A stretch of 22,914 nt of DNA from a virus (Duplodnaviria > Heunggongvirae > Uroviricota > Caudoviricetes), in IMG/VR virus record IMGVR_UViG_2703718780_000024, positions 1-22,914 of that record. The stretch is one strand, 5' to 3'. Position 1 is the first letter of the stretch, and each line of letters begins with the position of its first letter. The position numbers were made by a program, and so were the translations under genes. The notes under the pieces were generated by a model that saw nothing but the letters and a program-made list of their open reading frames with translations, did not search any database and was not told the DNA's origin. Shown in pieces: positions 1,553-20,474 of the stretch.

Positions 1553-1741
1553 TCACGAGGACTGAAGTTTCTCGCAATTAAAATTTATCAGTTTTACTTT
1601 CTGCTCTCTGGAAACGCCTGCTTCTTTTTTACCTGAGAGCATTTTTTCGCATTCTGATTTCGTTAGTTTAGATTTTGAATATCTTGTCCAGTTAGTAGGA
1701 GTGCCACCTTCCTTTTCAATAGTGGCGGTAATTTTATACAT
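1553..1741 (-). CDS. Small prophage protein (YdaC-like), 62 aa
   Basis: ATG at 1741 is preceded by GGAGG at about 6 nt spacing. It lies in the leftward early operon between ralR and xis. Confidence 0.5.
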   Translation of the reverse strand: MYKITATIEKEGGTPTNWTRYSKSKLTKSECEKMLSGKKEAGVSREQKVKLINFNCEKLQSS

Positions 1742-2793: not shown

Positions 2794-5488
2794 TTGCATA
2801 TTCCTTAGCCCAGCGGGGCAGTGATAACGTCTTAATAGCTGGCCATTCATCGGTATTGAGGCAGTCAGCCAGGGTTCGCAGATTGCGGTGATATTCCAGC
2901 TGACCTGCCAGTTTTGCTTCTTCGCCCATCATGAAAATTTCAACCGGATAACGTCCGCATTCAATAGTTGTGCTGGCAACCAGAAAAACGAAAGTTGGCT
3001 GCACTCCAAACTGTGCTTCATAACCGTCACTGTAGAATGCATCCTGAACGTGATAGCGGTAGTCGTAATAAGCGGTTTTGAATCGTTGAATATCCGCCGT
3101 AGTTTTCACGTCCATGATCCAGTGAAATTCAGGGATAATTTTGTCCGGACGGCACCGACACAAAATTGCTGTTTCAGGATCTTCCCAGTAAATTGATGAT
3201 TCAGCGTGTCCGGCGCTTTCAACAAGCCATTGCCCCAGCGGCAAAGCCATAACGCTCTGATACATGAGTTCAATTTTCCGGCCTTCTTCGGCAGTGATAA
3301 CCGTTTTTCCTGTGCTTGCGCATTCCCTCAGAAACGCTTTCTCTTCTTCTTTTCCGGAGTTTGTCCGGCGGTTAAATTCAGGTGCTACGATAAAGCGGTT
3401 ACTGAATTCTTCCGGCTCAAGTACCCGGCAGTGGAAAGCGGTTCCTAAATCGAGCGTTTTTGTCTTTGTGGTGTCCACGGGGGCATTTTTACGCCACAAA
3501 TACAGTGCCGGAGTATCAGCAATGTCATCGAGCTGAGACTTACTGACACCGGGACCCGCGTGGTAATTCTCATTCGAAATTCCGTAATAAATACCTGGCT
3601 CTATGTCTTCTACGATTACGGGATCTGCGACTTCGCCAGTTTCATCACTGCAATCGCGATGCGGATCGCTGCCAGCATTCTCATTGTGCGGATGTTCAGC
3701 GCCTTCCATTTCCTCCGGATCATTTTCCTTAGCTTCAACCTGACTCTCTTCATCGAATGTTTCCTGGTATGTTGCGTCGCCCATCACCGCGCCACAATCA
3801 GGGCAGTTGCCGCCACCACTCTGACCGCAGGCGGTACAGACTTTTTCCTCTTCCTGTTGCGCTACTGGTTCGGATTGTTTCGTTTCTGGCTCGTCTTGTA
3901 ACGCATTTGGGCTGTTTTGTTCCGCTTTTTGGTCGTTCTGTTCCGTTTCTGACTGGTTCTGGTTCACAGAATCGCAGGTTTCAATCCCCTTCACCCATTT
4001 CGGATCATTCGGATCGCTAATCCCTTCAACAAATTCACCACGTGATGCAGCAAGCAATTTATCGGCGTCAGGCTGGCTGATATTGGCTGCCTGCATAATT
4101 TTGTTTACTTCGTCAGCGGTAACTTTTACCGGCTCCGGTTGTACGGAATCTTCAGCGGTATCCACATTTTGCGGTAAGTCCGTGTATGTTCCGTTTTTGC
4201 GGGCAAGATATTCTTCTTTCGTGATTTCAGCAGCCCCGGCAGCCAGCGCCTTGTCCAGACCAGAAAGTTTGTTTGCGCGACCGTATTTTTCGCCATCCTT
4301 GTCGGTGAAGAGGAAGTAGAACGGCCCCTCACGCTCTACAGATGGTTCGACTTCCACTTTGCATTCGGTTTTTTCGTTGTCCGGAATTGCCGTTTCCACT
4401 GCATCAGTTTCTGGTACTGGCGACGAGAGAGTATCAGTTGCGCTCTGATTTCTTCCTTCATCTTCAAACACGCCCTTTGTAGTCAGGTATTCAGTAATGT
4501 ATTTGTTCAGTGCCACAGGGTCTTTGTGAATGTCGATCGGACGTTCACGGACAAGGCCAAAAATAGTCTGGCGGCTGTAGCGAAGCGCATCAGGTTGTTT
4601 GCGCATTGATGCGGAGATGCGCTTCCAGTCTTCGCGATCTCTGGCGATAACTTCATTTTTAGCCCAGCGAAGGATGCTGCCGTCAATGTTTCCGGCATCC
4701 GCATCACCAGGCCAGAGATAGTAGGCCAGCTCCCTGTCCAGGGTTTTCCATGTCTGCTTGTATTCGCGATGAATGGCGGCAGTTACAGGAGGGATTTTTT
4801 CTGCTGGGTTTTCAGTGTGCTGTCGGTTGGCTTTGGCGCGGGCAAGATCAACAACAGACGTGTATTTTCCAGTCTCTTTGCGCTCTGCGTCCTGCCGTTT
4901 TTTCCAGTTACGTAATTCAGCCTGAATTTCGGGCCATTTGGTACCCGGCTTACATTTGTGTTTAACCCATCCGATAGCGAACAGTTTGCGTTCCGGATAC
5001 ATAGCGTTAATTTCAGGCGTTTTCATCAGTGCTTCAACGATATGCCCGTCAAAGGTAGCCACGTCTTCTTGCAGTAATTCCTGCGCGTCAATCGCCATAT
5101 CAACGGTGATGTTTTCACATGTACCGAACTTAACCAGGACCGCGTTCTGTACTTCAAGGGACAGCTTGTCAAAATTGACGTTAATAGGATCGGATTCTGG
5201 TTCGACCGGAATAAAGGAAGCGGATTCCTCATCCCAGCGGTTTTCCTGCATATATTCGGTATCCCAGGAGTCGATAGCAGGGCGGGGCATGCCGGGTTTA
5301 TCTTCGCAGACAAGAAATTTATAAGCGCAGTCCTGAGCAGCAGGATATTGCTCCAGGAATTGCCAGGTAAATTTGGCACGGGCGCGGCGTTCATCACCGG
5401 CTTCAATGGCAGTGGCTACAGCAACTGCGCCCTCTTCTTTTATTGCCTGTTCGTCCGGAATGGCGGCGCAAATAAAGACTTTACTCAT
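2786..5488 (-). CDS. recE: RecE exodeoxyribonuclease VIII, 900 aa
   Basis: Large ORF immediately upstream of and overlapping recT. The C-terminal region ([24 protein letters not shown] ... [10 protein letters not shown]) matches the RecE nuclease domain as recalled. Confidence 0.85.
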
Positions 5489-5958: not shown

Positions 5959-6413
5959 TATCGCGTCCTCAACAATGAATTTTGTGATGCGGTGCCTAGT
6001 GCCTCCAGGTGACGTTAACCAGTTAACAATTAACGCCGGATACAGAGAATCCACCCATAACACTGTTTTTGGTTTTAACTGTTCCGCGTGCGCTGAGCCG
6101 CATTCACCGCATCACAAAATTCACTTTTAAAAAAGGGCGGCAGAGCAGTCACGGAGTAAAACTGATACCGCCAAATGTCACCAGAATATTGATAACAGAG
6201 GGCGTTGTAGCGGGGTTGTCACTTAAGCGTATGGTCAACCTGACAACCCGGTGTCCTCAACTGGGGAAGGAATAACCCCGCCATACTTACCGCCGCGCCA
6301 TTTCGCGGATTGCCACAACCGGAAGCGCACGTTCGAAGAAATCTAACGACAAGCCTTCTAAGGGAAAGAGCTTCGCCGTACGCTTTCGCGTTGTGTGCCT
6401 GCTTTTAACCACG

Positions 6414-7503: not shown

Positions 7504-7671
7504 CTTATCTATCCCCTTAACGCCGGGTGGCGGAACTAACTGCTGCACTGCAAAATTTGAATCCCGCCGTCATGTTCATACGCCTCGGGCTGGCTACTTA
7601 ACCCCTGACCACTGCCTGGTAACTCGAAGTATTGCCCGGCGTTCTGTGGGGCGGGGTGGGTTGGTAGGTAT

Positions 7672-7715
7672 ATAATGTACTTTGTGTTCATCATTGTAAA
7701 GTACTTTAAGTACAT
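7672..7715 (-). promoter_or_regulatory. Candidate leftward early promoter (pL-like) with overlapping operator half-sites
   Basis: On the minus strand: -35 TTTACA (7695-7700), 17-nt spacer, -10 CATTAT (7672-7677). ATGTACT/AGTACAT half-sites and a 10-bp palindrome AAAGTACTTT (7698-7707) overlap it. Confidence 0.4.
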
Positions 7716-7790
7716 TTTATGTATAAAAAAATGAGACGGGATAAAGTGAAGCACAAACCCGGAGGGGGACGCTACCGGATTTATGCTGGT

Positions 7791-8210
7791 TTAAGAGGCT
7801 TTTTGTTTTTTCTTTCGTGCTAACTCTTCGTAAATTGCATTGTACTTCTGTTTTTTCTCCTCAAGAGTTTTTAAAAGTTCATCTGTCTCACTGTCAGGGA
7901 GCTCGTCCAGAAGGTCAATGATGATTTTTTGTCTTGGATTTAACTCCTGATAGAAACGTATCTGTCCACTTTCTTCTGTATCCTCTCCCAAAAGATAGGT
8001 TGGTGTTGTTCCAATGAGTGTTGCTAATTCCCTTAATTTCTCTCGGCGAGGAATTGTTTCACCATTAAACCATTTGCTAACCGCTTTTGGTGTTAATTTC
8101 ATTCGACGGGCAATTTCTGCCTGCCTTCCATGTTGTTCATAACCAGCGTTTTCACAGGCTAGCGCAAGCCTACTGGCGAACTCTTTACGCGCTTTATCTT
8201 CATGAACCAT
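7791..8210 (-). CDS. Prophage repressor, XRE-family HTH (RacR/CI-like), 139 aa
   Basis: HTH segment QAEIARRMKLTPKAVSKWFNGETIP. The gene is divergent from a Cro-like gene and flanked by operator-like repeats. Confidence 0.8.
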   Translation of the reverse strand: MVHEDKARKEFASRLALACENAGYEQHGRQAEIARRMKLTPKAVSKWFNGETIPRREKLRELATLIGTTPTYLLGEDTEESGQIRFYQELNPRQKIIIDLLDELPDSETDELLKTLEEKKQKYNAIYEELARKKKQKAS

Positions 8211-8230
8211 AAGTTCAATGATATTCGCTC

Positions 8231-8266
8231 TTGAATGTACTGTCAGTTCTGTTATAGCATGTACTC
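8231..8266. promoter_or_regulatory. Divergent promoter/operator region between the repressor and Cro-like genes
   Basis: ATGTACT occurs at 8235-8241 and 8259-8265 in the 79-bp intergenic region. TTGAAT (8231-8236) and TATAGC (8253-8258) are candidate -35/-10 elements for rightward transcription. Confidence 0.4.
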
Positions 8267-8289
8267 AAAGTTCACATTGTGAGGGTGAT

Positions 8290-8544
8290 ATGAACCAGAA
8301 AACACTTGAAGATGTAATCAAAACTGTTCGCGTTTCTGTTGTGGCCGACGTTTGTGGTGTCAGCCAAAGAGCAATCTACAAATGGATGGATAACGGTAAA
8401 TTGCCTCGCACAGAATATACCGGCGAAACAAATTACGCTGAAAAAATCGCTCATGCATCAAACGGATTATTTTCTGCCGATGCAATTTTAACTATTGGCA
8501 GAAATAAAACTACTACGAAAAAGCTGATGGGAGTTGATTCATGA
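8290..8544 (+). CDS. Cro/YdaS-like HTH regulator, 84 aa from the internal ATG
   Basis: HTH-like segment VADVCGVSQRAIYKWMDNGKLP. GAGGG precedes ATG 8290. The stop overlaps the next gene start (ATGA). Confidence 0.7.
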   Translation: MNQKTLEDVIKTVRVSVVADVCGVSQRAIYKWMDNGKLPRTEYTGETNYAEKIAHASNGLFSADAILTIGRNKTTTKKLMGVDS

Positions 8545-8963
8545 AAATCAAGCATGAGCACATCGAATCAGTGTTGTTAGCCCTGGCAGCCGAAAAAGGG
8601 CAGGCGTGGGTCGCTAACGCAATTACTGAAGAATATCTGCGCCAGGGGGGCGGCGAATTGCCCCTGGTACCAGGCAAGGACTGGAACAATCAGCAGAATA
8701 TCTATCATCGTTGGTTGAAAGGTGAAACGAATGCGCAAAGGGAAAAAATTCAGAAACTGATCCCTGCGGTTCTGGCAATTCTTCCTCGCGAGCTGCGTCA
8801 CCGACTCTGCATCTTCGATACCCTGGAACGCCGTGCATTACTGGCGGCACAGGATGCACTGAGTACGGCAATTGATGCGCATGATGATGCAGTCCAGGCC
8901 GTTTACCGTAAAGCACATTTCAGCGGCGGCGGTTCTCCTAGCGATTCTGTCGTAGTGCATTGA
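8541..8963 (+). CDS. ydaT: YdaT-like protein (CII-position regulator/toxin-like), 140 aa
   Basis: It is translationally coupled to the Cro-like gene. The 140-aa length and position match Rac YdaT. Confidence 0.6.
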   Translation: MKIKHEHIESVLLALAAEKGQAWVANAITEEYLRQGGGELPLVPGKDWNNQQNIYHRWLKGETNAQREKIQKLIPAVLAILPRELRHRLCIFDTLERRALLAAQDALSTAIDAHDDAVQAVYRKAHFSGGGSPSDSVVVH

Positions 8964-9007
8964 TTGAAATTAATCGTACCGAACTGTTTTGTTCGGTATC
9001 AGTTAAA

Positions 9008-19143: not shown

Positions 19144-19219
19144 GGCCCTTTAGCTCAGTGGTGAGAGCGAGCGACTCATAATCGCCAGGTCGCTGGTTCA
19201 AATCCAGCAAGGGCCACCA
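19144..19219 (+). tRNA. tRNA with CAU anticodon, most likely tRNA-Ile2 (ileX/ileZ-like); tRNA-Met not excluded
   Basis: 76-nt cloverleaf with acceptor GGCCCTT/AAGGGCC, T-loop TTCAAAT, anticodon loop CTCATAA and encoded CCA. It closely resembles E. coli ileX as recalled. Confidence 0.85.
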
Positions 19220-19319: not shown

Positions 19320-19396
19320 GCGTTGTTAGCTCAGCCGGACAGAGCAATTGCCTTCTAAGCAATCGGTCAGTGGTTCGACTCCACTACAACGCGCCA
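19320..19396 (+). tRNA. tRNA-Arg (anticodon UCU)
   Basis: 77-nt cloverleaf with acceptor GCGTTGT/ACAACGC, anticodon loop CTTCTAA, T-loop TTCGACT and encoded CCA. Confidence 0.85.
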
Positions 19397-20161: not shown

Positions 20162-20474
20162 TTTTTTTGTTTGCTGTTTATTAAAAACACTTCTGCATGG
20201 TGAATCCCCCTGTGCGGAGGGGCGATCAGCAACCAGGTATATGGGATAATCGCGGATTCAGGTGCTGATACTGAATTCACCGGGAGGCACCCGGCACCAT
20301 GCTTTGCCACAAAAGTGTTGTTTCTGTTTTTCTCAAACTATCATCGTTATCCCTTTATTTCCGGCTGCGCATGGCGTGGCCTTTTTTTACGACCAGCCAC
20401 TGGCAGATGGCCATCCTGTAATTTGATTCCGGTTCCGGCTTTTTAACTCTGTTCCTGTACACGGGAGAAATTCG

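Follow-up and report, generated by a model that had tools for sequence, protein, structure and literature searches.

What is a heptamer doing when it recurs on both sides of a phage repressor gene? The question is raised by the immunity region of a 22,914-nt stretch of viral DNA (IMG/VR record IMGVR_UViG_2703718780_000024, positions 1 to 22,914; the whole 22.9-kb stretch is called the window here), which is a Rac-type lambdoid prophage of E. coli. The sequence ATGTACT, or its complement AGTACAT, is found between the repressor gene and a divergent cro-like gene, and again in the region downstream of the repressor that heads the leftward early genes. The two genes are as follows.

7791–8210, minus strand: repressor gene, 139 amino acid residues (aa), for which Pfam gives HTH_3 only.
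8290–8544, plus strand: cro-like gene, 84 aa, divergent from the repressor gene; the product is 62% identical to HK022 Cro (E 1e-34).

We propose that the heptamers are half-sites of five operators, and that these operators very probably form the left (OL) and right (OR) operator sets in the lysis-lysogeny switch of a Rac-like E. coli prophage, a lambdoid switch of the HK022 type.

A motif scan of the window finds exactly four copies of ATGTACT, at 7675–7681 (+), 7709–7715 (−), 8235–8241 (+) and 8259–8265 (+). Every one of them is in non-coding DNA, in the two stretches on either side of the repressor gene, which together account for about 1% of the window. The original prediction had placed the motif on both sides of the gene, which the scan bears out, and had named a similar motif density in coding regions as the observation that would speak against operators; no copy lies in coding sequence. 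Its figure of 79 bp for the divergent intergenic region is correct (8211–8289), and its position for the left-hand AGTACAT, 7708–7714, is off by one. Taken alone, the count of the heptamer is weak evidence: 1.7 copies are expected, and four or more were reached in 6 of 100 shuffles. The placement and the extended pattern are not weak. That is, every ATGTACT copy extends to ATGTACT-N4-GTWC, which was reached by none of 100 shuffles, and the core pattern GWAC-N5-GTWC has five matches in 22.9 kb against 0.91 expected, with five reached in 0 of 100 shuffles. All five matches fall in the two regulatory regions beside the repressor gene. The operator unit is a 15-bp imperfect palindrome, T-G-W-A-C-N5-G-T-W-C-A, of which there are five in the window's regulatory DNA and none elsewhere in it. 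Each operator has one stronger and one weaker half, ATGTACT being the stronger half-site; the fifth site (core 8204–8216, or 8202–8218 with flanks) is without ATGTACT.

The operators and the promoters they overlap are listed below. Ranks refer to the position weight matrix (PWM) described further on.

7676–7690: OL1, TGTACTTTGTGTTCA, promoter-proximal left operator, over the −10 and spacer of PL; PWM rank 5.
7700–7714: OL2, AGTACTTTAAGTACA, second left operator, abutting the PL −35; PWM rank 2.
8203–8217: OR3, TGAACCATAAGTTCA, spanning the repressor start codon (the A of ATG is 8210); PWM rank 1.
8236–8250: OR2, TGTACTGTCAGTTCT, middle right operator, between the PR −35 and −10; PWM rank 4.
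8260–8274: OR1, TGTACTCAAAGTTCA, right operator nearest cro, over the PR start region; PWM rank 3.
7672–7700, minus strand: PL-like promoter, −35 TTTACA (7700–7695), 17-nt spacer, −10 CATTAT (7677–7672); from a promoter scan.
8231–8258, plus strand: PR-like promoter of the cro-like gene, −35 TTGAAT (8231–8236), 16-nt spacer, TG-extended −10 TATAGC (8253–8258).
8218–8246, minus strand: PRM-like promoter of the repressor gene, −35 CTGACA (8246–8241), 17-nt spacer, −10 TATCAT (8223–8218); 10 of 12 matches in the scan.

The centre-to-centre spacing is 24 bp from OL1 to OL2, 33 bp from OR3 to OR2 and 24 bp from OR2 to OR1. This arrangement keeps much of what had been noticed earlier and redraws its units. 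The three motif elements listed on the left are real and resolve into two operators; the two sites listed on the right are real, and the third, OR3, had been missed. The half-sites recognized were the stronger ones, without the weaker second half of each site. OL2 contains both an AGTACAT copy and a 10-bp palindrome, AAAGTACTTT (7698–7707). The latter exists as described, not as a separate element but as the left half-site of OL2 with flanking bases, and it is palindromic because GTAC is self-complementary. The suggestion of OR-like and OL-like operators for one repressor is supported by the comparisons that follow, with the unit being an imperfect palindrome of 15–17 bp rather than a 7-mer.

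The minus-strand promoter TTTACA-17-CATTAT (7700..7672), also noticed earlier, was confirmed by the promoter scan. PL is predicted to drive the leftward operon, which comprises a ydfA-like DUF1391 gene, DicF, kil, racC, recE and recT. The PR-like promoter was read directly from the sequence; the consensus promoter scan passed over it because its −10 ends in C. The PRM −35, CTGACA, sits inside the centre of OR2, and the PRM −10 stops 7 nt before the repressor ATG. From this last position a leaderless repressor mRNA is predicted, the start of which would be covered by OR3, the predicted site of autorepression. Leaderless repressor mRNAs have been documented for paaR2 and racR (PMC8630535, PMC9638921).

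Are sites of this form known as repressor operators? The records of HK022 and φ24B annotate such sites as repressor-binding. The HK022 reference, the annotated record X16093, has two oL sites (2201 and 2225) and three oR sites (3000, 3033 and 3057); the cI start codon is spanned by the oR site at 3000. Paired with the window, these are:

HK022 oL, 2201–2215: TGTACTTAAAGTTCA, corresponding to window OL1 and at an equal position relative to the pL −10.
HK022 oL, 2225–2239: AGTACCAATAGTACA, corresponding to window OL2.
HK022 oR3: TGAACCATAAGTTCA, corresponding to window OR3 and identical to it over all 15 bp.
HK022 oR2: TGTACTATCAGTTCC, corresponding to window OR2.
HK022 oR1: TGAACCATAAGTTCA, corresponding to window OR1 and identical over 15 bp to window OR3.

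The HK022 spacings of 24, 33 and 24 bp equal those of the window, and the pL and pR hexamers are placed alike: the geometry of PL is identical to that of the annotated HK022 pL, and the PR −35 and −10 stand relative to OR2 and OR1 as they do in the annotated pR. Operators of φ24B are of the same form, for example TGAACCAATAGTTCG and CGTACTGAAAGTACG. The PWM was built solely from the five annotated HK022 operators and run over the window. Its top five 15-mers are exactly the five sites, with scores from 12.3 to 19.1. Further operators equivalent to HK022 OL3 or OFR were sought with the same matrix and rejected, the next-best scores being 9.9–10.6 against at least 12.3 for the five sites.

The related repressor of phage 933W provides a map of which bases matter. 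Its site is a symmetric 15-bp sequence, and affinity is set by positions 2–5 (G, A/T, A, C); the centre and position 1 count for little, T at position 3 is bound better than A, and residues K42 and K46 of the protein are needed for specific binding (PMC3317979). These positions can be compared with natural variation. The 1.1-kb immunity region of the window is 99.9% identical to that of phage vB_EcoS-666R9 and 96% identical to that of phage Tritos, and among 80 IMG/VR loci with repressors 99–100% identical, the intergenic regions display 15 OR variants and 38 OL variants. Polymorphism is found at 2 of 32 contact positions (positions 2–5 of the half-sites), at 9 of 20 central positions (6–8) and at 45 of 169 other intergenic positions. 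By Fisher's test, contact positions differ from central ones with p = 0.001 and from everything else with p = 0.007, values to be taken as approximate in view of the kinship among the isolates. OL1 varies at positions 6 and 9–10 only, and the changes in OR1 among the isolates and Tritos comprise one non-contact position (7) and one singleton. The differences seen in Tritos are all in site centres or linkers. OR2 is the sole operator with no polymorphism in the 80 isolates, its centre included; such invariance fits a predicted PRM −35, CTGACA, that occupies operator bases left untouched by the repressor.

Diverged relatives retain the same plan. The homologue contexts compared are L084 (89% identity) and those of Salmonella, L086 and L087 (65% and 62%), together with repressors that share the helix-turn-helix (HTH) and bear an S24 domain, namely that of Raoultella (L089) and those of L090 and L092. 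In an ungapped stack on the repressor ATG, sites are found at −64 to −50, −40 to −26 and −7 to +8 in all relatives, and at the same three offsets in HK022, HK75 and φ24B, while the flanks diverge. The PRM −10 is at a constant offset in the relatives, as TATCAT, TATAAT or TATAGT, and the OR2 centre CTGA.AG is kept even in distant ones. The OL pair with its 24-bp spacing is kept in L084, L086, L087 and L089, and the PL −35 TTTACA and −10 CAT.AT are kept in all relatives. The OL pairs are 55–2335 bp from the repressor stop, yet the 24-bp spacing is held. Taken with the natural variation, the diverged homologues show that selection acts on exactly the bases known as contacts of the 933W repressor.

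The gap between the repressor gene and OL/PL is a slot for cargo insertion. It holds a HigB/HigA-like toxin-antitoxin pair in the Salmonella contexts (L086, 3053–3720; L087, 3088–3755), a 480-aa AAA_15/21 ATPase in Raoultella (L089, 3308–4750) and stk in φ24B (L093, 403–1449); in the window the gap is 77 bp and has no cargo insert. The right side varies as well. L090 and L092 keep all three OR sites without a cro gene beside the repressor. There, the gene divergent from the repressor across the OR sites (1946–2500) is that for the antiterminator Q, followed by lysis genes. A layout with Q in place of cro would be an unusually compact switch.

The repressor itself is, as its alignments indicate, a mosaic: a DNA-binding domain of the HK022/933W clade on a body of the DicA/Gifsy class. 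It has an HTH domain of that clade (about residues 1–75), a disordered linker and a DicA-type helical C-terminal tail. In protein-level search it is 46% identical to HK022 CI over residues 4–102 (E 9e-32), HK75 CI being related also, and about 51% identical to the CI of 933W/φ24B over residues 1–73. The recognition helix reads TPKAVSKW against TPKAISKW in HK022 CI, and K42 and K46 are retained at the same numbering. No Peptidase_S24 match is found in the 139-aa protein by Pfam, whereas relatives with the same HTH domain (P0021, P0034) have S24. Repressors of Klebsiella, Raoultella and Citrobacter phages (P0021–P0038; L089, L090–L092; Klebsiella phages H33–H39) share with it the recognition helix (TPKAVSKWFNGE) and the operators, and have an S24 C-terminal domain; a single DNA-binding specificity is in this way coupled to two kinds of induction module. 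With K-12 DicA the window repressor aligns end to end, C-terminal helices included, at 28% identity (E 8e-15). An AlphaFold2 (AF2) model has a confident five-helix HTH, a disordered linker (77–90) and a helical hairpin (92–138; helices 92–103 and 106–138). A Foldseek search of this model against the Protein Data Bank (PDB) returns generic XRE-type HTH matches and nothing informative for the tail; by sequence, the PDB gives weak matches to the HTH domains of P22 c2 and 434 repressors.

A near-identical repressor is expressed in a lysogen. Tritos, whose repressor is 99.3% identical to that of the window, is spontaneously induced and forms plaques, and its repressor is transcribed 24-fold over the prophage background in LF82 lysogens (PMC9928086).

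Three other explanations of the repeats have to be weighed. In the first, the sites are real, and it is the Cro-like protein or some further factor that mainly or solely uses them, the 139-aa protein acting elsewhere. The Cro homologue is indeed nearer to HK022 Cro (62%) than the repressor N-terminal domain is to HK022 CI (46%), and the assignment of the sites to the repressor draws on its homologues. L090 and L092, however, keep three OR sites with no adjacent cro. To our knowledge, operators are common to both proteins in every lambdoid switch that has been studied. The near-identity of the recognition helix to that of HK022 CI and the retention of K42 and K46, essential in the 933W repressor (PMC3317979), also argue for the repressor as a user of the sites, and we regard a main or exclusive role for Cro or another factor as very improbable. 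The second explanation, to which we give even less credence, is that PL and PR resemble each other through common ancestry or duplication of promoter modules, with no operator function. It draws on the facts that lambdoid PL and PR regions share sequence and that the sites overlap promoter hexamers. Against it, OR3 has the motif without a PL- or PR-type promoter, the sites have a dyad symmetry that promoters do not need, and it is the symmetric GWAC/GTWC blocks that are kept free of variation, not just the −35 and −10 hexamers; moreover, the matching sites of HK022 and φ24B are annotated as repressor sites, and those of 933W have been characterized experimentally (PMC3317979). The third, that a short AT-rich 7-mer recurs by chance in intergenic DNA that is itself rich in AT, suits the raw count and is already refuted by the confinement of the four copies to so little of the window, by the extended pattern, by the recovery of the sites with a matrix trained on HK022 and by the positions kept in diverged relatives.

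Several points weigh against the five-operator switch, or against parts of it. For this protein and this DNA, operator binding rests on sequence comparison. The relatedness of the isolates, mentioned above, limits what the Fisher values can carry. Because OR3 extends into coding sequence (Met-Val-His), its conservation is in part confounded; eight diverged relatives nevertheless agree throughout its non-coding half, TTGAAC. The −35 predicted for PRM falls within OR2, with its centre at about −33 relative to the ATG, and repressor bound at OR2 could either activate or repress PRM. On the protein side, AF2 confidence for the tail is only moderate, and the tail alone, compared with one Rac-type 'DicA' (Rac-SA53), gives no significant match, so that the link to the DicA class depends on the full-length alignment with K-12 DicA. 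Two further points concern induction. Here the search covered the window; the prophage continues beyond it, and other prophages in the same host would also lie outside. PHROGs and Pfam scans of the remaining open reading frames of the 22.9-kb window recognized no antirepressor. Matches to the LexA box (CTGT-N8-ACAG with at most one mismatch) number 9 in the window against 6.4 expected, no more than background, and none of them is near a candidate gene.

How, then, might the five-operator switch work? A repressor dimer would read G-W-A-C in each half-site through its HTH (TPKAVSKW, K42, K46), leaving the central bases unread. With OL1 and OL2 bound, PL would be off and the leftward operon (the ydfA-like gene, DicF, kil, recET) silent; with OR1 and OR2 bound, PR would be off, and cro, ydaT and the replication genes silent. 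At high repressor levels, OR3 would be occupied over the start codon and the predicted leaderless PRM start, limiting repressor synthesis. If the preference of the 933W repressor for T at position 3 applies here, OL2 (GTAC/GTAC) would be the strongest operator; the weakest would be OR3 (GAAC/GAAC), which suits a site of autorepression. In 933W, PRM is repressed when OR3 is occupied, and OL3 is absent (PMC5977221). The Cro-like protein is expected, by analogy, to bind the same operators, with the opposite outcome. HK022 CI is reported (PMC8053113, citing Carlson and Little, 1993) to bind adjacent operators cooperatively, at OR as well as at OL, and to form a loop between the two regions; in the window repressor, any such cooperativity or looping might run through the helical tail.

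The induction route is suggested by the same tail. Repressors of the DicA and Gifsy classes do not undergo cleavage; antirepressors inactivate them instead (PMC10448788, PMC3121763). Such antirepressors are often under LexA control, with genes outside the immunity region. Since a DicA/Gifsy-type tail replaces the S24 domain, induction here is probably through an antirepressor rather than RecA-stimulated self-cleavage.

Establishment of repression would involve a further gene, YdaT, which we take by analogy as the CII-equivalent of the window phage.

8541–8963: YdaT-family gene downstream of the cro-like gene; YdaT_toxin PF06254, E 6e-11.
8534–8551: YdaT recognition repeat TTGATTCATGAAAATCAA, with 0 mismatches to TTGATT-N6-AATCAA, at the junction of the cro stop and ydaT start.

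A copy with two mismatches is found at the ydaT stop codon (8960–8977). In CP-933P the OM site is in the same place, beside a PRE-like promoter (PMC9986795), and by comparison the 8534–8551 site probably belongs to a PRE-like establishment promoter.

The remainder of the window is laid out as follows.

Leftward genes, in order: int, RalR/RalA, recT, recE, racC, ydaE, kil, DicF.
Next in order, plus strand: a sieB-like gene.
Between the sieB-like gene and the repressor gene: a pair of small leftward genes, of which one is ydfA-like (DUF1391).
After the repressor gene: the cro-like gene, the YdaT-family gene, then O- and DnaC-like replication genes.
1557–1735, plus strand: RalA antitoxin sRNA.
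6135–6186, minus strand: DicF sRNA, inside the PL operon.
20166–20338, plus strand: STnc100 sRNA.
19144–19216 and 19320–19393, both plus strand: two tRNA genes, downstream of a Q-like gene.

The RNA assignments are Rfam matches at gathering score. As DicF lies inside the PL operon, it would come under the control of the operators studied here. Between PL and the first small gene is a GC-rich leader of about 160 nt (7505–7666, minus strand). Phages that match the 1.1-kb immunity query over the leader stretch alone do so at 86–90% identity, and 2003 E. coli genome records in the 80–90% identity band are probably partial, leader-type matches. A putL-like antitermination RNA was considered for this leader and rejected: there is no similarity to HK75 or HK022 putL, and the fold has z = −1.6, which is not significant. 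Farther to the right, a cargo cluster (13565–17064) separates replication from the Nin region. In it, a type II C5 DNA methyltransferase gene (+) converges on genes for a PF20553 'Methyltransf_35' protein and a GHKL (HATPase_c_3) ATPase (−). PADLOC recognizes the methyltransferase only; the cluster may be an uncharacterized restriction- or defence-type module.

What does the assignment add? The operator family, its geometry and its logic are already known, as are small non-cleavable repressors, and the general picture of lambdoid switches is unchanged. Our literature search found no paper describing this particular immunity module, which is annotated at present only as "helix-turn-helix protein". 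At least 80% of the 1.1-kb immunity region is held by 1047 of 5426 complete E. coli genomes (~19%), and operators, promoters and a proposed mechanism can now be assigned to a module of that frequency. Active phages carry it too, among them Tritos from LF82, a Crohn's-associated strain, and it would control DicF, kil and recET. The link to the dissected HK022 and 933W switches makes predictions transferable, among them the key bases, OR3 autorepression and possible OL-OR looping. The module also offers a clean natural case of a single DNA-binding specificity coupled to two induction mechanisms, S24 and the DicA-type tail, and from it one would predict cross-immunity between a common cryptic or temperate prophage and HK022-type phages.

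A more tentative proposal, which we hold to be possible and on balance rather unlikely, is that immunity specificity and induction route are separately swappable. That is, the non-cleavable, DicA-tailed repressor would share operators, and so cross-immunity, with the S24-type CI of HK022 and with repressors of the Klebsiella and Raoultella phages, the recognition helix of which is identical to that of the window repressor. If so, a resident Rac-like prophage would give SOS-insensitive immunity against phages of HK022 immunity, and a co-resident S24-type prophage of the same specificity could stay repressed during DNA damage, one prophage dominantly locking another.

Comparison with known systems places the module between several families. 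As in HK022, the operators are of the same family, three OR sites are present with OR3 across the repressor start codon, the spacings and the places of the PL and PR hexamers agree, and the CI N-terminal domain and Cro are related (46% and 62%). In contrast, HK022 CI has 235 aa and an S24 autocleavage/oligomerization domain, whereas the window repressor has 139 aa and a DicA-type helical tail. HK022 also has OL3 and the distal operator OFR downstream of OR, neither of which scores in the window, and it has a λ-type CII, Nun and put RNAs where the window phage has YdaT and a PL leader unlike putL. Its immunity module is rare, being found in only 10 of 5426 E. coli genomes, whereas that of the window is common.

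With 933W and φ24B the module shares 15-bp operators of the form xGWAC-N5-GTWCx, three OR sites placed alike relative to the cI ATG, only two OL sites and a CI N-terminal domain about 51% identical with K42 and K46 conserved. In 933W, position 1 is C/G rather than the T/A of the window operators, the repressor has an S24 domain and binds non-cooperatively, and the cargo gene stk stands between cI and OL.

The DicA/DicC/dicBp system of Qin and the Gifsy GfoR/GtgR repressors are alike in size (~135–139 aa), in an HTH with a helical C-terminal tail and in the absence of S24; Qin also has a PL operon with a ydfA-like gene and DicF. The DicA operator Oc, TTGTTAGTCATAACTAACAA (PMC3441716), differs from those of the window, and the DNA-binding domain of the window repressor is closer to HK022 CI than to DicA.

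Finally, the PaaR2-YdaS-YdaT system of CP-933P and the RacR-YdaS-YdaT system of K-12 Rac have the same Rac-type backbone, a small repressor divergent from a cro-like gene and ydaT, OR and OL sets, a leaderless repressor mRNA, documented or predicted, and a YdaT site at the end of the cro-like gene (PMC8630535, PMC9986795, PMC9638921). The window Cro is of the HK022 type, not the YdaS type. Identity with the Rac-type operators was considered and rejected, as the sequences of the RacR site (TTAGGC-n3-GCCTAA), the PaaR2 half-site (GTTTAGTAA) and DicA Oc all differ from the window operators (PMC9638921, PMC8630535, PMC3441716). To judge from these comparisons, the switch combines HK022-type operators, N-terminal domain and Cro with a DicA-type tail and a YdaT of the Rac/CP-933P type.

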